Positions 15,089 to 54,653 of a DNA stretch of 64,000 nt are shown here, piece by piece; position 1 is the first letter of the stretch; each line of letters opens with the position of its first letter. The notes under the pieces are model-generated. The model saw nothing but the letters and a program-made list of their open reading frames with translations. It searched no databases and was not told the origin of the DNA. The position numbers were made by a program, and so were the translations under genes. Location: assembly GCA_949082785.1 (NCBI GenBank), contig CARVLU010000004.1:23371-87370 (forward strand). The letters run 5' to 3'. The stretch comes from an uncultured Alphaproteobacteria bacterium (GTDB lineage Bacteria > Pseudomonadota > Alphaproteobacteria > Rs-D84).

Positions 15089-15421
15089 ATGCAAAAGAAT
15101 ATCAAAGAAATTATGATTGCCCTGAACAAAGTCCTGACGACAACTGTTTGGGTCAACGAAGACCGCCAAATCGTATCGCTGGGTGACGAACTGCAAATCG
15201 GCCACAATAACGCGCCGCGTTCAATCGAAGATTTGTCCCGTCCGTCACTGGTTGGTGCATACGTATCGTTACAGATTCGCACGGATAATTTCGACGTCGC
15301 GGCCGAAAGCATGGATACCAAGGCCTTGGCACTGCGCGTCAAAGAAATGGTCTTTGCCGAAGCGAAAAAGATTATGGATGCGGGCGACGCCACATCCGAC
15401 AAGTTTGCCATGGCGGCATAA
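15089..15421 (+). CDS. hypothetical protein
   Basis: ORF of 110 aa with a strong ribosome-binding site (aaagaaagggggg, 9 nt upstream). No recognisable domain. Confidence 0.4.
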   Translation: MQKNIKEIMIALNKVLTTTVWVNEDRQIVSLGDELQIGHNNAPRSIEDLSRPSLVGAYVSLQIRTDNFDVAAESMDTKALALRVKEMVFAEAKKIMDAGDATSDKFAMAA

Positions 15422-15496
15422 CAGTTTCCGGTCATCCGGAAGGAAGGGAGCACTGTCGGGACATCTGTCCCGACAGTTTTTTATCATCACGACCAT

Positions 15497-15601
15497 TTCC
15501 CTGGATTGCCACGCCACTGACGTGGCTCGCAATGACAAAGGAGATACAGTGCCAGGCAATTCAACACCCTTGTCATTGCGAGCCATCGGCGAAGCAATCC
15601 A
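15497..15601. repeat. MITE-like palindromic element, copy A (9 bp TIR ctggattgc/gcaatccag; internal ctcgcaatgacaa / ttgtcattgcgag arms)
   Basis: ctggattgccacgccactgacgtggctcgcaatgacaaagg...cccttgtcattgcgagccatcggcgaagcaatccag. A second copy is at 19818-19925. Confidence 0.55.
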
Positions 15602-15637
15602 GTAAAAAAAATCCCCACACCAATAAATTTAAATTCC

Positions 15638-15666
15638 TTGAAACTTCGCGCGGGGTGCGATATACT
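15638..15666 (+). promoter_or_regulatory. sigma70-type promoter TTGAAA-17-TATACT driving leader RNA copy 1
   Basis: ttgaaa(15638-43), 17 nt spacer, tatact(15661-66). The identical promoter is present in the inverted copy at 19754-19782. Confidence 0.5.
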
Positions 15667-15672
15667 GGATTC

Positions 15673-15848
15673 GCATTGGGAAACCGGTGTAGGCTTCAAA
15701 ACCTAATAGTACTGTCAGTGATGACATTAAACTATCTCCAACTTTAATCGGTTGGGGGGCTGTGAATATATTGAATAAACAGCGCTATTGTACTAATAGT
15801 TTTGAACCTCCAACCGCCCACAATGTTGTCGGGCGGTGTTTTTTTGCT
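15673..15848 (+). ncRNA. structured leader RNA, copy 1 (outer helix ttcaaaac..gtac/gtac..ttttgaa; long-range ggttggggg/cctccaacc pairing; intrinsic terminator ccgccc..gggcgg-U8)
   Basis: Predicted transcription start ~7 nt after the -10. GGTTGGGGGGCTGTGAATATATTGAATA...CCTCCAACC followed by a terminator ending 24 nt before the ATG at 15872. Family members are at 17244-17417 (-), 19578-19747 (-) and 54058-54160 (+). Confidence 0.45.
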
Positions 15849-15871
15849 TAAAAAAAATAAGGAGTCAAACT

Positions 15872-16099
15872 ATGGCAAAATTATTAATCGACGCAAACTA
15901 TTACGGCAGTGTGATGCGTCATGCGCGCGAACATTTGAAAATCAGTGTTTCCGACGCGGCAAAATTACTGAAAATGAACAAGAAAGATTATCAGAAATGT
16001 GAACGTGGCCAGGCGCTGTTTGATATCGGGATACTGCGCCGTTTCTTTCACGGGGCGTTTGCACTGCTGGTGATAAAACGCAGCCGCGATAATTTGTAG
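15872..16099 (+). CDS. small XRE/Cro-type HTH protein (75 aa), copy A
   Basis: MAKLLIDANYYGSVMRHAREHLKISVSDAAKLLKMNKKDYQKCERGQ is a helix-turn-helix. aaggag ribosome-binding site 8 nt upstream. A near-identical paralog is at 19334-19561 (-). Confidence 0.7.
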   Translation: MAKLLIDANYYGSVMRHAREHLKISVSDAAKLLKMNKKDYQKCERGQALFDIGILRRFFHGAFALLVIKRSRDNL

Positions 16100-16175
16100 C
16101 GCGCATCCGCGTGGCAATCCAGGAATAGGGCATTGTGCGCGTTATGGGATGCCAAAAGGGGACAAAGTGACATAA

Positions 16176-16207
16176 CAAAAACCCCGGCGGTTGCCGGGGA
16201 TTTTATT
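16176..16207. terminator. bidirectional intrinsic terminator
   Basis: aaaaa ccccggcggttgccgggg attttatttc. Confidence 0.6.
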
Positions 16208-16370
16208 TCGCCTTTTTCAGGGACGGTTTGCGGGGGCGGCATTTGTATGCGTTTTTGTCCGCAATCGACAGGGCAATCGCCACCGCCTGTTTCTGGGGGC
16301 GGCCGGCGTGGACTTCGGCGCGGATGTTTTCGGATATGGTTTTGCGGGTGCAACCTTGTTTCAGGGGCAT
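16203..16370 (-). CDS. small basic hypothetical protein (55 aa)
   Basis: MPLKQGCTRKTISENIRAEVHAGRPQKQAVAIALSIADKNAYKCRPRKPSLKKAK. Ribosome-binding site aaagg 8 nt upstream of the ATG at 16370. Confidence 0.4.
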   Translation of the reverse strand: MPLKQGCTRKTISENIRAEVHAGRPQKQAVAIALSIADKNAYKCRPRKPSLKKAK

Positions 16371-16443
16371 GATATAACCTTTCTGTTTCTGGGGACATTG
16401 TATCACAGCGATGGCGCAAAATATACAGGATGAAAATCCAGCC

Positions 16444-17229
16444 TTAGTCAGACAGGTGATACGTTTGGTCGTTGTATCGCACGTTGATTGATGCGGCCGC
16501 GCCCGACTTTAACACGCCATAGCATGTTTTGCCGCCATATCCAATGCGCAATGAAGGCGTGGTATATGCCACCGGATACAAATTAAACGTGCGCCCATTT
16601 CCGGTTTTTATTTTCCCAATTCCGGCCCCGCACAGGGGCACGCATGTGCCATCGTGATTGCCATAACCCGCGTCGCATTCCCATGGACAGTCGTTGGTCG
16701 GCGAACTGTCGGATTGTGCGGGCGTGCCGGCCCCGGTATAATGCGCATGTTCCGGCAGATTTGTGCATGGCCGGGCGTATCGGTACCACGTGTGCCATGT
16801 TGTCCCCACATATTGGGCCAAATAATATCCGGGGTTGGCCCGGTACCATAAAAATGCGGATTGGCCATTCCAGTAATCGGTGCCATTATACCAGCTTTCG
16901 ATATACAGTTCCCCATATGGGCTGGATATAAAGACACCTGCGAAACAATGTGCCGGCCAGATGGCCCCGTTTGTCGATGAACCGGGGTTCCACGACATCA
17001 GCCATGATTGTTGCGTCACCCGGTCCACCGGGTACAGTGTCGATACGAATCCGTACCAATCGGTCGTGTCCGTCGGACATGGATGTTGCGTGTCGTCACC
17101 GGGACAATAATACCCATCGACGCATTTTTCGCATGTGGTGCCGTTTAAATACATCCCCCCATCGCATACGCCCCATGCCACCGCCGGCATTCCCATCACG
17201 CACGCAATTGTCCATAAAACAAATTTCAT
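16444..17229 (-). CDS. secreted cysteine-rich protein (paralog family B)
   Basis: Signal peptide MKFVLWTIACVMGMPAVAWG from the ATG at 17229. Motifs CEKCVDGYYCPGDDTQHPCP and CPWECDAGYGNHDGTCVPLCG; W/Y-rich middle. Confidence 0.6.
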   Translation of the reverse strand: MKFVLWTIACVMGMPAVAWGVCDGGMYLNGTTCEKCVDGYYCPGDDTQHPCPTDTTDWYGFVSTLYPVDRVTQQSWLMSWNPGSSTNGAIWPAHCFAGVFISSPYGELYIESWYNGTDYWNGQSAFLWYRANPGYYLAQYVGTTWHTWYRYARPCTNLPEHAHYTGAGTPAQSDSSPTNDCPWECDAGYGNHDGTCVPLCGAGIGKIKTGNGRTFNLYPVAYTTPSLRIGYGGKTCYGVLKSGAAASINVRYNDQTYHLSD

Positions 17230-17243
17230 TGTTAACCCCGAAC

Positions 17244-17417
17244 AAAAAATAAAACCACCAGAAACGTTTCGGGTGGTTGGAGTTTTACAACAATTGAACG
17301 AATTGCGCGGTTTATTCAATGTATTCACCACACTCCAACCGACAAGATTGGAATGTTTATCGTCACACGGACGCGTTCAACGGGTTGTAAAGCCCCATGG
17401 CGCCATCGGCCACCACG
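17244..17417 (-). ncRNA. structured leader RNA, copy 2 (promoter GTGACA-17-TATAAT at 17424-17452; ggttggag/ctccaacc; terminator ccaccc..ggtgg-U)
   Basis: Minus-strand ggttggagtgtggtgaatacattgaataaaccgcgc...aaactccaaccacccgaaacgtttctggtggttttatttttt ending 15 nt before the start codon of the cysteine-rich gene. Confidence 0.45.
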
Positions 17418-17506
17418 GGGTATATTATAACGCAAGTTTTGAAAATTGTCACCCCATTATTTTGGGGCGATAAATGAAAAACGGGGGCGGGCCCCGTTTT
17501 GTTTTA

Positions 17507-17833
17507 TTAATGCGCCATCAGATGTAAAATCACACTGGTGATAAAAATCAGGGTGATGATGCCCAAAATAAATTTCTGGGGTTTGTGGCCGTCATTGCCG
17601 TGGCAATGGTCGCATTCGCATCGGCAATCACGCACCACCAACACCCACGACAGACCCAACATCCCGGCGGAAAACACGAACAGCCACGGTTCCAGCCATT
17701 GCGGAATAATATGCAGATGCGCAGATTCCGGCGCAATCAATCCCACAATCGACAGCGCAATCGGCAGACCGCAACAAAAGACATGCGGCAACAATGACGC
17801 CGCGATTCCAATTTTAACAGCTTTGTTTTTCAT
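17507..17833 (-). CDS. MerT-like metal transport membrane protein
   Basis: VFCCGLPIALSIVGLI (Cys pair in TM1) and LEPWLFVFSAGMLGLSW resemble MerT. Loop DCRCECDHCHGNDGH is metal-binding-like. The ATG at 17833 is 7 nt after a TATAAT (near-leaderless). Confidence 0.55.
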   Translation of the reverse strand: MKNKAVKIGIAASLLPHVFCCGLPIALSIVGLIAPESAHLHIIPQWLEPWLFVFSAGMLGLSWVLVVRDCRCECDHCHGNDGHKPQKFILGIITLIFITSVILHLMAH

Positions 17834-17886
17834 GATGTATATTATACGCAATTTTGCGCCAAACGCCAAAAAATTTTTTATTCAGT

Positions 17887-17962
17887 TGGTATCCCCAGAC
17901 GGAATCGAACCGCCATTTAATTCTTAGGAGGAATTTGTTCTATCCGATTGAACTATGGGGAC
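17887..17962 (-). tRNA. tRNA-Arg (anticodon CCU)
   Basis: Cloverleaf folded by hand: acceptor GTCCCCA/TGGGGAT, anticodon loop CTCCTAA, T-loop GGTTCGATTCC, 3' CCA. Confidence 0.85.
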
Positions 17963-18049
17963 GTGTTCCTTATATCTTATTCGCTGGATTTTAATATTGC
18001 AAGTTATTATCCGCCAGACTATAATGTTCAAACAATATGGAGAAAAAGT

Positions 18050-18988
18050 ATGGGTAGCAGACTGGTTGGGTACGGGTCATATTTGCCTGAAAAAATTATG
18101 ACCAATCAAGATTTTGAAAAAATTATGGATACATCCGATGAATGGATTGTGCAACGCACCGGGATGCGCGAACGTCACTTTGCACGCGATGACGAAACCG
18201 TTGTTGATATGGGCGTCATTGCCGCACAGCGGGCGTTGGAACGCGCAAATTTAACCATCGATGATATCGATATGGTCGTGGTTGCAACAACGACATCTGA
18301 ATTGGATTTCCCGTCGGTCGGGGTCCAGATTCTGGGGAAATTGGGCGCCACCCGGGACCAGCCCGGATTTGACGTGCGCGGGGCATGTACGGGATATATT
18401 TATGCGCTGCATTGCGCGCGCGCGTTCTTTACCGCGGGGATGTACCGCCGCATCATGGTTATCGGCGCGGAAAAAATGTCCCGCTTTATCAATTGGGACG
18501 ACCGCAGCACCGCCGTATTGTTCGGCGATGGGGCGGGCGCGCTGATTTTCGAACATTCCACGTCCAGTTATTCCGGGATTATCGATACGGTCGTGATGGG
18601 TGACGGGAAATCGTTCGACATGCTGCACGGGACACCCGACCACAAGATTTCCATGAACGGACCCGAAACGTATAAAAAGGCCGTGACATTAATGCCCGAA
18701 GCCGCCAGTTACATCATGGAACATGCGGGCATCACGGCGGACAACGTCGATTGGATTATCCCGCACCAGGCAAATCTGCGCATTATCAACAGTGGCGCGG
18801 AAAGACTGGGGTTCCCGTTGGAAAAGATTTTGGTCACCGTGGACAAGCATGCAAACACCAGCGGCGCGTCGGGCGTATTGGCGTTGGCGTATGGGATGGA
18901 CAACGGTTTGATTAAACAGGGTCAGTTAATCTTGTACCCCGCATTTGGCAGTGGTCTGACATGGGGTGCGGCGTTAATCAGGGTGTAA
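18050..18988 (+). CDS. fabH: 3-oxoacyl-ACP synthase III
   Basis: MGSRLVGYGSYLPEKIMTNQDFEKIMDTSDEWIVQRTGMRERHFA...GACTGYIYALHCA (active-site Cys) ...HQANLRII...GNTSGAS. The listed ORF starts at an upstream TTG; the ATG at 18050 is preferred. Confidence 0.9.
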   Translation: MGSRLVGYGSYLPEKIMTNQDFEKIMDTSDEWIVQRTGMRERHFARDDETVVDMGVIAAQRALERANLTIDDIDMVVVATTTSELDFPSVGVQILGKLGATRDQPGFDVRGACTGYIYALHCARAFFTAGMYRRIMVIGAEKMSRFINWDDRSTAVLFGDGAGALIFEHSTSSYSGIIDTVVMGDGKSFDMLHGTPDHKISMNGPETYKKAVTLMPEAASYIMEHAGITADNVDWIIPHQANLRIINSGAERLGFPLEKILVTVDKHANTSGASGVLALAYGMDNGLIKQGQLILYPAFGSGLTWGAALIRV

Positions 18989-18992
18989 ACAC

Positions 18993-19274
18993 ATGGCAAC
19001 AATTACCAGAATGGATTTTGCAAACAAATTGCGTGAACAGTTCGGTCTGACCACGACGGATTCGTACAAACTGGTGGATGTGATTTTCGGGGAAATCCAG
19101 GAATCATTAATCCACGGCGAAGAAGTCAAGTTTGCGGGTCTGGGCAGTTTCAAGATTTTGGACAAGGCCCCACGTATGGGCCGCAACCCGAAAACGGGCG
19201 CGCCGGCGATTATTTCTGCGCGTCGCGTGGCAACATTCCGCCCCAGCACCGAATTCAGAAAACGTGTTGCGTAA
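18993..19274 (+). CDS. ihfA: integration host factor subunit alpha
   Basis: MATITRMDFANKLREQFGLTTTDSYKLVDVIFGEIQESLIHGEEVKFAGLGSFKILDKAPRMGRNPKTGAP is HU/IHF family, directly after fabH as in alphaproteobacteria. Confidence 0.85.
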   Translation: MATITRMDFANKLREQFGLTTTDSYKLVDVIFGEIQESLIHGEEVKFAGLGSFKILDKAPRMGRNPKTGAPAIISARRVATFRPSTEFRKRVA

Positions 19275-19280
19275 ATCATT

Positions 19281-19310
19281 AAAAACACCGGTAAATACCG
19301 GTGTTTTTTA
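19281..19310. terminator. bidirectional intrinsic terminator between ihfA (+) and HTH copy B (-)
   Basis: aaaaa caccggtaaataccggtg tttttta. Confidence 0.6.
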
Positions 19311-19333
19311 TTGGTTGCATCCCAGGATTGGTG

Positions 19334-19561
19334 TTACAAATTGTCGCGGCTGCGTTTTATCACCAGCAGTGCAAACGCCCCGTGAAAGAAACGACGCAGT
19401 ATCCCGATATCAAACAGCGCCTGCCCACGTTCACATTTCTGATAATCTTTCTTGTTCATTTTCAATAATTTTGCCGCGTCGGCAACACTGATTTTCAAAT
19501 GTTCGCGCGCATGACGCATCACGCTGCCATAGTAATTGGCGTCGATTAATAATTTAGCCAT
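19334..19561 (-). CDS. small XRE/Cro-type HTH protein (75 aa), copy B
   Basis: MAKLLIDANYYGSVMRHAREHLKISVADAAKLL... has one amino-acid difference and several silent differences from the copy at 15872-16099. Confidence 0.7.
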   Translation of the reverse strand: MAKLLIDANYYGSVMRHAREHLKISVADAAKLLKMNKKDYQKCERGQALFDIGILRRFFHGAFALLVIKRSRDNL

Positions 19562-19577
19562 AGTTTTAACTCCTTTA

Positions 19578-19747
19578 TAAAAACACCACCCAAGACATTT
19601 GGGTGGTTGGAGGTTCAAAACTATTAGTACAATAGCGCTGTTTATTCAATATATTCACAGCCCCCCAACCGATTAAAGTTGGAGATAGTTTAATGTCATC
19701 ACTGACAGTACTATTAGGTTTTGAAGCCTACACCGGTTTCCCAATGC
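19578..19747 (-). ncRNA. structured leader RNA, copy 1b (inverted paralog of 15673-15848; promoter at 19754-19782)
   Basis: Same architecture as copy 1. The terminator ccaccc..gggtgg differs from ccgccc..gggcgg by a compensatory G-C to A-T change. Confidence 0.45.
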
Positions 19748-19817
19748 GAATCCAGTATATCGCACCCCGCGCGAAGTTTCAAGAATTATATCACGCCAGG
19801 TGTGTTGGTTTATTGAC

Positions 19818-19925
19818 TGGATTGCCGCGCCACTATCGTGGCTCGCAATGACAAGGGTGATAAAGTTCCTGGAAATTAGACACCATTGTCATTGCGAAGG
19901 AGTGAAACGACTGCGGCAATCCAGT
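19818..19925. repeat. MITE-like palindromic element, copy B
   Basis: ctggattgccgcgccactatcgtggctcgcaatgacaaggg...ccattgtcattgcgaaggag...gcaatccag, same TIR as copy A. Confidence 0.55.
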
Positions 19926-19983
19926 GAATAAAATCCCCGCCATGGGCGGGGCGCAAACAAAAAATCCCCCATACGGGGGATGA

Positions 19984-21048
19984 TTATTGTTCGGCCATTA
20001 ATTCAGCCTTGATCGGTGCCAGCGCATCCACATGCGCACTGATTTTATGATACACATCCGATTTGGTTAAATTCAGTGCACTGCGTATCGCGTTTGCGAA
20101 CGCCAATGCGTCACTGTTGCCGTGTGTTTTAATCGCAAACCCACGCAGCCCCAAGAACATCGCCCCCGCATATGAACGCGGGTCAATTTTATGTTTCAAA
20201 CGCTTGAACACATGGACCAAGAAAAATGCCCCGACAACCGCCAGCACAGATTTTTTCAAATTTTCCATCAACACGCGCTTAATCAATTTTGCGGTGCCTT
20301 CCACCGTTTTCAAAACGATGTTACCGGTGAACCCGTCGGTGACGACAACCTGGACGTTACCGGCGCTGATATCGGTCCCTTCGACAAAGCCGATATATTC
20401 ATACGGCAATTGGTCACGATGCGCCATCAGCAATTTGTTCAAACGTTGCAGGGTTTCGTTCCCCTTGGTGTCTTCTTCACCGATATTCAAAACACCCAAT
20501 TTCGGATGGGGCATATGACCGATAACGTCGGCATAAACACTGCCCAGGATGGCAAAATCGAACAGATTTTCCGCATCACACCGAACATTGGCCCCCAAAT
20601 CCAGCATGACAACGCGCGAATCCCCGCCGCCCGACGGCAACATGGTTGTGATTGCCGGACGCGAAATCCCATCGACCGTTTTCAGTGCCAATTTCGACAG
20701 CGCCATCAACACGCCGGTGTTACCCGCACTGATGACGGCGGTGGAATTACCTTCGCGGACATCTTTGATGGCCATATACATGGATGTATTCTGGGCATGG
20801 CGGATGACATCGCGCACCTTGTCCGTGCCACGGATAACATCGGGCGCATGGATGATTTCACAATTGCGCGCGACGCGCGGATATTTGTTCATCATCTTGC
20901 GCAGACGTTTTTCATCGCCAAACACACGAAAGAATACCGTATCTTCGCCATTCTGGTACAGGAACTGGTTCATTCCACCCAACACGGCCCCGGGCGCCTT
21001 ATCCCCGCCCATTGCATCAATTGAAATAATTTGTTTTTCGCTGGACAT
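19984..21048 (-). CDS. plsX: phosphate acyltransferase PlsX
   Basis: MSSEKQIISIDAMGGDKAPGAVLGG...GNTGVLMA...VTDGFTGNIVLKTVEG. Two tandem hairpin terminators follow at 19925-19983. Confidence 0.9.
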   Translation of the reverse strand: MSSEKQIISIDAMGGDKAPGAVLGGMNQFLYQNGEDTVFFRVFGDEKRLRKMMNKYPRVARNCEIIHAPDVIRGTDKVRDVIRHAQNTSMYMAIKDVREGNSTAVISAGNTGVLMALSKLALKTVDGISRPAITTMLPSGGGDSRVVMLDLGANVRCDAENLFDFAILGSVYADVIGHMPHPKLGVLNIGEEDTKGNETLQRLNKLLMAHRDQLPYEYIGFVEGTDISAGNVQVVVTDGFTGNIVLKTVEGTAKLIKRVLMENLKKSVLAVVGAFFLVHVFKRLKHKIDPRSYAGAMFLGLRGFAIKTHGNSDALAFANAIRSALNLTKSDVYHKISAHVDALAPIKAELMAEQ

Positions 21049-21116
21049 AGCACATAAAAAAAGCAGAAGGCACAATTAAATGAACCGCCCCTTCTGCCAA
21101 TATATCTTGTTACAGA

Positions 21117-53894: not shown

Positions 53895-54057
53895 GATATC
53901 CCTTTTGTTACTTTGCGGGGGCATTATAACAACGTTTTGCTTGCACCGCAAATTTTATATTGTTATGATGAAAATGTTATCGGGCGTTCCGATAACGGGG
54001 TTTAGCGACCCATTCTTGTACGCCGGCATACACGCGTCATGGTATGCGCTTTTTTCT

Positions 54058-54160
54058 ATCTCCAACTATTGGGTTGGAGGGTGTGGAAATATATTCGAAT
54101 ACCACCACTATTTACAAGATAGTCGCTAACCTCCAACCGCCTGTTTCTGGCGGTTTTTCG
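54058..54160 (+). ncRNA. structured leader RNA, copy 3 (outer helix ctatct/agatag; ggttggagg/cctccaacc; terminator ccgcc..ggcgg-U5)
   Basis: atctccaactattgggttggagggtgtggaaatatattcgaatacc...ctaacctccaaccgcctgtttctggcggttttt ends 28 nt before the ATG at 54189. A candidate promoter TTGCAC-17-TATGAT lies at 53941-53969. Confidence 0.45.
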
Positions 54161-54188
54161 TACACGAAAAACAAACGGAGGTTAGAAA

Positions 54189-54653
54189 ATGAAACATAAA
54201 TCAGTCTGGGTCGGGGTTGCGCTGTTGATACCGACCGGCATCCACGGGGCCACCTGGGTTACACCATCGTGTTGCAGCGAGAATACAATTGCGCCATCCA
54301 CCATCAAATGCAAAAGCGTCACCCGCAAAGTGGAATGCGGCGGCATAACAATCGTTGATTGCGGCGAATGCCAATCGGGATACAGCCCGTACCAGGCCAA
54401 AAAAACCGTTTGCAGCGGCGCCGCCCAACAAACCATCACATACCAGGATTGTATGCAAAACGTTGTCGTTTCGTGCAGCGTTGGTGAATACCAGGACGGA
54501 ATGCTGTGCGCCAAATGCCCGGACGGTGGAAAATCCGATATTGGCGCCACGTCCATCACCCAGTGTTATAAACCCAAATACGAAAACACGTTTTCCGATT
54601 CCACCGGCAGCGGGGTTACGGGGATGGATAATAACTGTTATTACACGAAATAA
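54189..54653 (+). CDS. secreted cysteine-rich protein (paralog family C)
   Basis: Signal peptide MKHKSVWVGVALLIPTGIHG; motifs CGECQSGYSPY and CAKCPDGG; ends NNCYYTK. ggagg ribosome-binding site. Confidence 0.6.
   Translation: MKHKSVWVGVALLIPTGIHGATWVTPSCCSENTIAPSTIKCKSVTRKVECGGITIVDCGECQSGYSPYQAKKTVCSGAAQQTITYQDCMQNVVVSCSVGEYQDGMLCAKCPDGGKSDIGATSITQCYKPKYENTFSDSTGSGVTGMDNNCYYTK

Follow-up and report, generated by a model that had tools for sequence, protein, structure and literature searches.

Four copies of a leader RNA in an Rs-D84 contig

Four copies of one non-coding module, a structured leader RNA, lie within 64,000 nucleotides of DNA from an uncultured alphaproteobacterium of the lineage Rs-D84 (assembly GCA_949082785.1, contig CARVLU010000004.1, positions 23,371 to 87,370 of the forward strand; this whole stretch is the window referred to below). 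Copies 1 and 1b precede genes for small Cro/XRE-like helix-turn-helix (HTH) proteins, copy 3 precedes a gene for a cysteine-rich protein and copy 4 a further open reading frame (ORF). The leader has two mutually exclusive folds and a distant kinship to sRNA-Xcc1, a small RNA borne by integrons, phages and genomic islands of Proteobacteria, and it therefore most likely gates the gene downstream.

A covariance model of the core of the leader, R1, was built from 49 related copies and the window was scanned on both strands with filters off. The scan gives exactly four copies at 79-108 bits (Table 1), which confirms the four homologous loci claimed in a first-pass annotation of this DNA, and there is no fifth copy in the window, the next match (22.6 bits) being the antisense of copy 4. 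A near-consensus promoter had been claimed for every copy, and a promoter scan lists sites with 10-11 of 12 matches upstream of copies 1, 1b and 3, but none for copy 4, where two hexamers at the homologous distance, with a weak -35 and a good -10, were seen by eye. The intrinsic terminator annotated shortly before the start codon is borne out, with a G+C-rich stem and a U-run in all four copies and a gap of 15-26 nt between the end of the U-run and the start codon (26 in copy 1, 15 in copy 1b, 16 in copy 3 and 26 in copy 4). Two compensatory differences between copies were also read correctly, the terminator stem being either ACCGCCC/GGGCGGT or ACCACCC/GGGTGGT, and the long-range helix being formed by either GGTTGGGGG or GGTTGGAGG, each of which pairs with CCTCCAACC. 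Two details have to be amended: copy 4 starts about 80 nt more upstream than annotated, its transcribed part being approximately 53976-54163, and the pair ctatct/agatag, taken for an outer helix, is not the conserved one, the true outer helix of copy 4 being TTAGCGAC..CTTGTA / TACAAG..GTCGCTAA.

The predicted transcripts of approximately 175 nt fold far better than shuffled sequences (z -5.5, -3.7 and -4.6), which together with the at least 137 copies found elsewhere excludes a chance origin. The window holds only three independent sequences, because copies 1 and 1b, together with their HTH genes, form the arms of a 480-nt inverted repeat that are 94-98% complementary.

Table 1. Leader copies in the window, their parts and neighbouring features
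Feature	Position	Strand	Remarks
Copy 1, promoter	15638-15666	+	TTGAAA, 17-nt spacer, TATACT; 10/12 matches (scan)
Copy 1, P0, hairpin at transcript 5' end	15673-15689	+	In minimum free energy (MFE) fold; 6/6 pairs compensatory across family
Copy 1, A0-A1-A2, outer helix 5' strand	15691-15712	+	AGGC, TTCAAAAC, TAATAGTAC
Copy 1, hairpin h	15713-15726	+	TGTCA gtga TGACA; variable, missing in some copies
Copy 1, segment B	15736-15742	+	CTCCAAC; partner of C in Fold I; proposed anti-antiterminator
Copy 1, segment C	15750-15758	+	GGTTGGGGG; P1 5' strand; partner common to B and C'
Copy 1, hairpin D (P2)	15759-15783	+	Co-varying stem, conserved loop GAAUAUAUUGAAUAA
Copy 1, hairpin E (P3)	15785-15799	+	Stem CTAT/ATAG; loop = A2'
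Copy 1, A1' linker	15799-15806	+	GTTTTGAA; pairs with A1
Copy 1, C'	15807-15815	+	CCTCCAACC; P1 3' strand
Copy 1, terminator T	15813-15837, U-run to 15846	+	ACCGCCC...GGGCGGT; first 3 nt = last 3 of C'
Copy 1, R1 match	15731-15846	+	102.5 bits
Copy 1, Shine-Dalgarno	about 15859-15864	+	
Copy 1, ORF	15872-16099, ATG 15872	+	75-aa Cro/XRE-like HTH protein; Pfam HTH_31, E 1.6e-4
Copy 1b, full element, promoter to U-run	19576-19782	-	Inverted paralogue of copy 1
Copy 1b, promoter-like site	19782-19754	-	
Copy 1b, R1 match	19576-19689	-	107.6 bits
Copy 1b, HTH ORF	19334-19561	-	
Copy 3, full element	17245-17452	-	
Copy 3, promoter-like site	17452-17424	-	
Copy 3, R1 match	17245-17358	-	104.1 bits
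Copy 3, ORF	16444-17229	-	Cys-rich protein with N-terminal hydrophobic segment
Copy 4, full element	53941-54163	+	
Copy 4, -35	53941-46	+	TTGCAC; weak; 17 nt before -10
Copy 4, -10	53964-69	+	TATGAT
Copy 4, P0	53976-53995	+	
Copy 4, A	53997-54021	+	
Copy 4, B	54060-54066	+	
Copy 4, C	54072-54080	+	
Copy 4, C'	54130-54138	+	
Copy 4, T	54136-54154	+	
Copy 4, R1 match	54055-54163	+	79.4 bits
Copy 4, downstream ORF	54189-54653	+	
Inverted repeat, arms	15630-16108 / 19325-19790		Brackets 3.2-kb segment
fabH	17948-18985	+	TTG start listed at 17948
plsX	19987-21075	-	
tRNA-Arg(CCT)	17887-17962	-	Overlaps listed fabH start by 15 nt
Upstream repeat	15562-15607 and 19813-19860		...cccttgtcattgcgagcc...ggcgaagcaatccagtaaa

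The inverted repeat brackets a short segment, and fabH and plsX now stand in opposite orientation, a sign that recombination between the two modules of leader and gene may have inverted the segment. As a tRNA gene overlaps the TTG listed as the start of the fabH-like ORF, the true start of this ORF is probably further downstream. The HTH-type copies have a further repeat (...cccttgtcattgcgagcc...ggcgaagcaatccagtaaa) immediately before their promoters, the same type of which is found upstream of copies in other loci (L008, L031, L069 and L070) and is extended in other genomes to gcaatccagtaaata-tttgcaaa; it may be an element akin to repetitive extragenic palindromes or miniature inverted-repeat transposable elements (REP/MITE-like), or an operator.

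The leader family and the genes it precedes

A viral collection and a set of contigs representing one genome per species were scanned with an exact pattern, the related loci being given L-numbers. The pattern is present in three contigs of the viral collection and at least 119 stretches of the one-genome-per-species contigs; three matches (L077, L087 and L103) were dropped as chance after inspection. On these loci R1 finds 137 copies, 14 of them missed by the exact pattern, giving a family of at least 137. The covariance-model search that the first-pass annotation had in mind thus yields four copies in the window and at least 137 in related loci, and the simple local duplication it had considered as an alternative is refuted by copies in so many other metagenome-assembled genomes (MAGs).

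Among the matches listed, nearly all are from MAGs labelled Candidatus Enterousia, Rickettsiales bacterium or Alphaproteobacteria, which stem from animal and human guts and rumens and often contribute several contigs each. Enterousia, whose genomes are approximately 0.75-1.0 Mb, is a member of the uncultured order Rs-D84, organisms of the gut (PMC12306168). Extra copies outside the seed matches occur about once per 57 kb, which suggests some 15-20 copies per genome, a very rough extrapolation rather than a count.

The start codon lies on the same strand as the leader at a median of 50 nt after C' (CCTCCAACC), with 100 of 110 copies falling within 29-72 nt. The proteins encoded downstream are diverse, 108 non-redundant sequences forming 45 clusters, most of which have no Pfam match, with small HTH or HTH-like proteins making up about 30%. 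The largest cluster (20 members) consists of Cro/XRE-like HTH proteins of 70-80 aa, including those of copies 1 and 1b, a second has 11 proteins of 60-67 aa, many other proteins are rich in Cys and have a hydrophobic segment at the N terminus, and there are single cases of an ABC transporter, a glycosyltransferase, GmrSD and TyrRS. A non-coding module with its own promoter and terminator in front of heterogeneous ORFs, as first annotated, is therefore what the family as a whole displays. Leaders also occur in tandem, with two or three spaced 170-290 nt apart and no or only tiny ORFs between (L059:2779-3063, L119:436-791 and L089:2335-2944), and in this resemble the five tandem sRNA-Xcc1 copies of a Xylella genomic island (PMC12189769).

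Two mutually exclusive folds

The folds were tested on a sequence-only MAFFT alignment (A4) of 124 copies. Fold I comprises P0, A0, A1:A1', B:C, D and T, with a copy-specific outer helix of approximately 20 bp (A0/A1/A2 with A2'/A1'/CCUC) around the hairpins h, B:C and D, the hairpin B:C being CTCCAAC:GGTTGGAG. This fold has 91.4% of its cells paired; its covariation score of 0.395 compares with 0.150 when columns are shuffled and with 0.086 or less when the register is slid, and there are compensatory changes at 7/7 pairs of A1:A1', 5/5 of D and 6/6 of P0. Fold II is made up of P0, C:C' (GGTTGGAGG with CCTCCAACC), D, E and the upper portion of T, with 92.7% of its cells paired and a covariation score of 0.410; C:C' itself is 99.4% paired and has co-varying pairs, the ninth being GC in 91 copies, UA in 20 and UG in 7. 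The pairing of GGTTGGAG with CTCCAACC noticed in the first-pass annotation is thus real, since the ninth pair co-varies and divergent copies alter both strands together. Pair 260/280 of the E stem likewise changes between UA (69 copies) and AU (38), whilst the D loop is invariant or nearly so and matches the flanking motifs in the consensus of the sRNA-Xcc1 P2 loop.

As the A2 helix lies in a poorly aligned region it was examined by a permutation test over 114 distinct loops. The duplex of A2 with the E loop is far stronger for cognate than for non-cognate pairs (-7.7 against -1.8 kcal/mol), with 65% of cognate pairs in the best 1% (Kolmogorov-Smirnov (KS) p 1e-78). A2' is the E loop, often together with the first base of the E 3' arm, and the A2:A2' helix and hairpin E therefore exclude each other.

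The strongest evidence for the use of both pairings of C comes from divergent copies found with R1, where B, C and C' show three-way covariation in at least six independent variants. Among them, C, C' and B read GGTCAGGAGG, CCTCCTGACC and CTCCTGACC in L038:3478, GGCAGGAGG, CCTCCTGCC and CCTTCTGCC in L018:7208, GGTCGGGATG, CTCCCGACC and GTCCCGACC in L017:1624, GGTCGGGGG, CTCCCCGACC and CGCCCGACC in L093:1130, and GGTTGGGGG, TCCCCAACC and TCCCAAC in L027. Where B differs from the perfect complement it does so almost only through G.U pairs, with the variation on the B side only, which fits B:C being an RNA pairing on the leader strand.

These patterns bear on the idea that there is no regulated switch at all, the module being a spreading cassette of promoter, stable 5' structure and terminator, an insulator or a selfish repeat that provides newly acquired or reshuffled genes with transcription in a genome poor in regulators, and whose alternative pairings are by-products of internal repeats. 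The high copy number in genomes of approximately 0.75-1 Mb (PMC12306168), the position next to lineage-specific and mostly unannotated genes, the tandem copies without an ORF between them (e.g. L059, L119) and the inversion flanked by copies 1 and 1b would all suit such a cassette. A by-product, though, would not keep the three-way changes of B, C and C' or the covariation of both folds, and a terminator between a promoter and its sole ORF is counter-productive unless regulated; nor were terminal repeats, target-site duplications or a transposase seen beside the copies, although no systematic search for them was made. We consider this explanation improbable.

The two folds are not equal in energy. 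B:C is in the MFE structure of 113 of the 124 full-length leaders, making Fold I the thermodynamic ground state, and forcing C:C' in the full-length leader costs a median of 13.1 kcal/mol; only if the 5' half is missing does Fold II become the favoured one. The first-pass annotation had proposed that the outer helix and C:C' form together as a pseudoknot. Whilst the pairing of GGTTGGAGG with CCTCCAACC holds, two exclusive nested folds fit better, as the outer helix competes for the CCUC of CCTCCAACC and A0 and B directly oppose the combination of outer helix and C:C'. With its long connecting loops the pseudoknot is sterically conceivable.

Terminator, promoter and Shine-Dalgarno region

The two folds meet the terminator in three bases, the last of C' (ACC), which are also the first of the T stem; the ACC:GGU pairs are kept in 92-98% of copies, and at least 5 T follow the stem in 114 of 124. 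The -10 box is at least 90% conserved in the 124 aligned copies and belongs to the sole conserved promoter, which lies upstream of P0. There is accordingly no space for the ORF to have a promoter of its own. A possible internal promoter, formed by TTGAAT in the D loop and TATAGT in hairpin E, was rejected as its spacing varies with the E loop and its -10 is lost in the copies with CAAT/ATTG. A leader peptide or mini-ORF in the D loop or the 5' half was rejected as well, the frames, by eye, being unconserved and the length of the D stem shifting by non-multiples of three.

Some copies have a further link between the leader and the start of the gene. Beyond the generic CCUCC:GGAGG match, the A1'-CCUCC segment is slightly more complementary to its own Shine-Dalgarno region than to others (cognate -10.4 against -9.1 kcal/mol, KS p 1e-7), a weak signal. 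The extended complementarity is found in approximately 13-20% of copies, for example copy 4, in which the region GGAGGTTAG is the perfect complement of CTAACCTCC, and L071 (GGAGGTTCGAA), and in modelled read-through mRNAs the Shine-Dalgarno pairs with the A1'-CCUCC segment in 19 of 101 copies.

In 38 of 80 members a run of A that immediately precedes the Shine-Dalgarno can also pair with the U-run (15838-15858 and 54155-54170; e.g. UUUUUUUGCUUAAAAAAA and UUUUCGUACACGAAAA). This hairpin is possible in read-through transcripts only, and its z is below -1.64 relative to shuffles in 31% of cases.

Relation to sRNA-Xcc1

At gathering thresholds Rfam gives only tRNAs and tmRNA in the window and 18 related loci and nothing on the leader, so that no Rfam family covers it at threshold. 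In E-value mode, below its gathering score of 53, the sRNA-Xcc1 model (RF02221) matches window copies with 29.3 and 31.0 bits, and the best related scores are 38.8 and 39.6 bits (E 0.0025 and 0.0016; L048). The alignments put helix on helix and extend to the motif of the P2 loop, to the UUUGA linker and to the RCC after P1, and by this likeness the core in Fold II form is a distant relative of sRNA-Xcc1. The earlier statement that the leader is not a known class therefore stands as regards Rfam families at gathering score, but not for its core, which has this sub-threshold relative.

Divergent copies are found in the MAGs that carry Enterousia-type copies (L017:1624-1745, L048:5280-5416, L093:1130-1262 and L015:7104-7229), with another P1 sequence and a larger P2 insert (UAUACAACA and an inner GGGC...GCCC hairpin). 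By these features they fall between the Enterousia type and canonical sRNA-Xcc1, and two of them, L017:1624-1745 and L048:5280-5416, bridge both forms of the P2 loop with UAUACAACA and the inner hairpin.

Thousands of genomes carry annotations of sRNA-Xcc1 as a 'trans-acting virulence sRNA', and we know of no target for it. For a positive control phage-borne sequences were fetched by motif pattern, of which 21 are bona fide sRNA-Xcc1 (54-81 bits); the pattern GGCCGGGG..CCCCGGCCACCC, meant for canonical sRNA-Xcc1, brought one C4 RNA and no sRNA-Xcc1. Canonical P3 loops have locus-specific complementarity to the region of translation initiation of an ORF that follows approximately 52 nt downstream. 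Across 27 distinct loops the cognate pairing with the ribosome-binding region averages -6.84 against -3.33 kcal/mol, with 70% in the best 5% (KS p 8e-14), and there is a weaker complementarity of the P3 loop to an upstream segment (p 5e-7), whilst a cruder test of the whole P3 region against the downstream 130 nt gave no signal. Read at face value these sequences imply that canonical sRNA-Xcc1 would act by a C4-like cis-antisense mechanism on the ribosome-binding region of the next gene. The E loops of the Rs-D84 leaders have no such copy-specific complementarity, either to the ribosome-binding region (p 0.45) or to the downstream 160 nt (p 0.67). A segment resembling B was looked for in canonical sRNA-Xcc1 loci and not found, and the hairpin that follows their P1 has a U-run in only 5 of 62. 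In the canonical loci, which lie on phage or prophage contigs (L141-L248, e.g. L144, L145, L153 and L163), a CTCAAA(A) box before the Shine-Dalgarno matches the conserved UUUGAG linker.

Could the small RNA, rather than the gene, be the main product? The leader would then be the auto-inhibited precursor, held in Fold I, of an antisense RNA like sRNA-Xcc1 or C4, with the ORF expressed by leak-through. Cleavage just 5' of GGU, comparable to that by RNase P on the C4 RNA of phage P1, or elsewhere in the 5' half would release the core, which would refold to Fold II and base-pair with A2/A1 of its own locus, with ribosome-binding regions through A1'-CCUCC or with distant targets. The kinship of the core at 38.8-39.6 bits to an RNA seen as a discrete species of approximately 88-100 nt in Xanthomonas (PMC2996969) speaks for this, as does the start of P1 with GGU, which corresponds to the GGW of the C4 RNase P site (PMC5320573) and is followed by RCC further on. 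It would also explain the conservation of a disfavoured fold, Fold II being favoured only without the 5' half; moreover the upstream loop-complementary segment mirrors a1/b1 of C4, the canonical RNAs are themselves antisense to the ribosome-binding region that follows them, and in a subset of copies Shine-Dalgarno plus spacer is complementary to A1'-CCUCC. Yet the E loop has no copy-specific target in the tested regions downstream, and the C4 model (RF01695) finds nothing in 15400-20000 at E up to 10, although the same model finds a true C4 RNA in L133. The tight same-strand coupling to a start codon over 45 clusters would be needless for a trans-acting RNA, and RNase P requires a formed P1, which Fold I blocks. 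On balance we regard a small RNA as the main product as rather unlikely.

A terminator switch as the favoured mechanism

The reading we prefer, held tentatively and at a little short of even chances, is that the leader acts in cis as a terminator, antiterminator and anti-antiterminator built on a core like sRNA-Xcc1. The attenuator-like cis-regulatory role suggested in the first-pass annotation is likewise the best reading of the start-codon spacing, the terminator and the two co-varying folds. Each copy would have a strong promoter that yields an RNA of approximately 175-180 nt, with T placed 15-30 nt before the ribosome-binding site of the controlled gene. In Fold I, C' (CCUCCAACC) is not paired with C, and its ACC can therefore complete the terminator stem; Fold II uses the ACC that T needs and releases B, A1 and A2. 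Fold I would thus give full termination, an abundant, short and stable RNA and a gene that is off, and Fold II, by withholding ACC from T, would give antitermination, read-through and a gene that is on, with B:C serving as the anti-antiterminator and helix A as a lock. The agent that throws the switch would be shared by all copies and read their invariant parts, the two GAAUA of the D loop and the sequence of P1; alternatively the 5' half may be removed or masked. Candidates are an RNA-binding protein, processing by an RNase as for C4 RNA, and a small ligand. In evolution, a leader of the sRNA-Xcc1 type may have exchanged its translational platform, in which a loop pairs with the ribosome-binding region, for segment B and a U-run terminator.

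Several points weigh against a terminator switch. Promoter use, termination and read-through are all inferred from the sequence. Fold II should not form unaided, because of its cost in energy and because B:C and helix A are transcribed before C', and so something must mask or remove the 5' half or clamp P1 and the D loop. C' and the terminator have no more than 3 nt in common, some 10 of 124 copies keep the leader without a U-run, and no common pathway or ligand-related function was found for the genes downstream across the 45 clusters. Lastly, the subset with extended A1'-CCUCC complementarity is a pointer to control of translation, either as well or instead.

It has also to be considered whether the leader is a riboswitch, in which the invariant P1 and the D loop with its two GAAUA form a pocket for a small molecule, e.g. 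a second messenger or an ion, the binding of which stabilises Fold II during transcription and so switches the terminator, or the ribosome-binding region in canonical sRNA-Xcc1. A conserved core with two expression platforms in two lineages is a hallmark of riboswitches, the conservation beyond the needs of pairing is concentrated in one loop and one helix, and riboswitches for second messengers likewise precede functionally mixed genes, those for c-di-GMP being a case in point. The energy gap of 13 kcal/mol with B:C forming first is, however, much for a ligand to overcome, the conserved positions occupy a helix and a large, AU-rich hairpin loop and not a junction, no metabolic theme unites the genes downstream, and the copy-specific 'address' helices are closer to antisense systems than to aptamers. 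A riboswitch is therefore a poor prospect in our estimation.

If the leader is a terminator switch, it is an RNA of the sRNA-Xcc1/C4 type rebuilt for this use and expanded in a lineage of reduced genomes, and it is absent from Rfam. sRNA-Xcc1 and the Rs-D84 family appear to be one RNA core that was re-wired from translational to transcriptional control. A bolder view, which we think doubtful, is that the P1/P2 core, i.e. the G-rich helix and the GAAUA...GAAUAA loop, is the receptor for one conserved signal or factor with interchangeable outputs, the ribosome-binding site being occluded by antisense pairing in phages and integrons and a terminator being switched in Rs-D84. Were this so, it would be a widespread and unrecognised class of regulatory RNA for accessory and mobile genes of many Proteobacteria and phages. 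To our knowledge almost nothing is known of gene regulation in Rs-D84 or Candidatus Enterousia. The leader stands before perhaps 15-20 genes per genome, including most of the small HTH proteins seen and many of the Cys-rich proteins with a hydrophobic N-terminus, and is for this reason a candidate for a dominant regulatory device of Rs-D84 genomes; on the bolder view it would be among the main systems of gene control in Enterousia genomes of approximately 0.9 Mb, with about 2% of genes.

Comparison with known regulatory RNAs

With classical attenuators (the trp leader, the T-box and many riboswitches) the leader shares successive segments, B, C and C', that pair in a mutually exclusive manner, and a C' that has bases in common with a terminator stem directly upstream of the ORF. 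It differs from them in that this overlap is only 3 nt and that an extra copy-specific helix of approximately 20 bp locks the off state; nor was a consistent leader peptide (looked for by eye only) or a tRNA-binding element found in the Rs-D84 leader.

The likeness to C4 is of another kind. C4 (c4-a1b1 motif) is the antisense RNA of phages P1 and P7 and the immI operon. In phage P1, a1b1 is followed by c4 and by a2b2, which lies over the ribosome-binding site, and RNase P cuts at the GGW of P1 (PMC5320573). The Rs-D84 leader likewise has an upstream segment complementary to the loop or linker of its own RNA (a1/b1 in C4, here A1/A2) that is highly copy-specific, a three-helix RNA in which P1 starts with GGW (GGU in the leader), then CC (RCC in the leader) and then the controlled gene, and it has expanded to many chromosomal copies as C4 has in Acinetobacter (PMC5320573). 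Unlike C4, the E loop of the leader has no downstream a2/b2 target, the complementarity of its linker and CCUCC being weak and limited to a subset of copies, whereas C4 lacks the alternative pairing of B with P1 and the overlapping intrinsic terminator.

The leader is also to be compared with sRNA-Xcc1. Both have a three-helix core with a G-rich P1 of 9 bp that encloses two hairpins, P2 and P3, the stems of which co-vary in the leader (D and E); the flanking motifs of the P2 loop (AAUACAAUA...GAAUAA in sRNA-Xcc1, GAAUAYAUU-GAAUAA in the Rs-D84 leader); a linker of UUUGA type before the 3' strand of P1, with RCC and a hairpin after it; and an ORF on the same strand approximately 50 nt downstream (median 50 nt for the leader, 52 nt for the canonical RNA). 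Both are multi-copy and sometimes tandem (PMC12189769), and sRNA-Xcc1 too is found upstream of heterogeneous accessory genes, such as symE (10.1101/2025.06.18.660453) and an ORF6N-domain gene (10.1101/2020.03.17.996009). The leader differs in that its P2 loop is without the inner CCCGAAAGGG hairpin of the consensus AAUACAAuA-(CCCGaAAGGG)-GAAuaa, and in that its promoter is approximately 75 nt upstream of P1, which places the complementary upstream segment within the same transcript. The leader has a segment B opposing P1, which the canonical loci do not, a U-run terminator in 114 of 124 members as against 5 of 62, and a P3 loop without a target in the ribosome-binding region, where the canonical P3 loop has one.

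The layout of a canonical sRNA-Xcc1 locus is in turn that of C4 in phage P1. The comparison thereby provides sRNA-Xcc1 with a concrete and testable mechanism, in which the P3 loop, complementary as it is to the ribosome-binding region of the gene that follows, would act upon this region in cis, and this result may matter to more people than the leader of the window itself.

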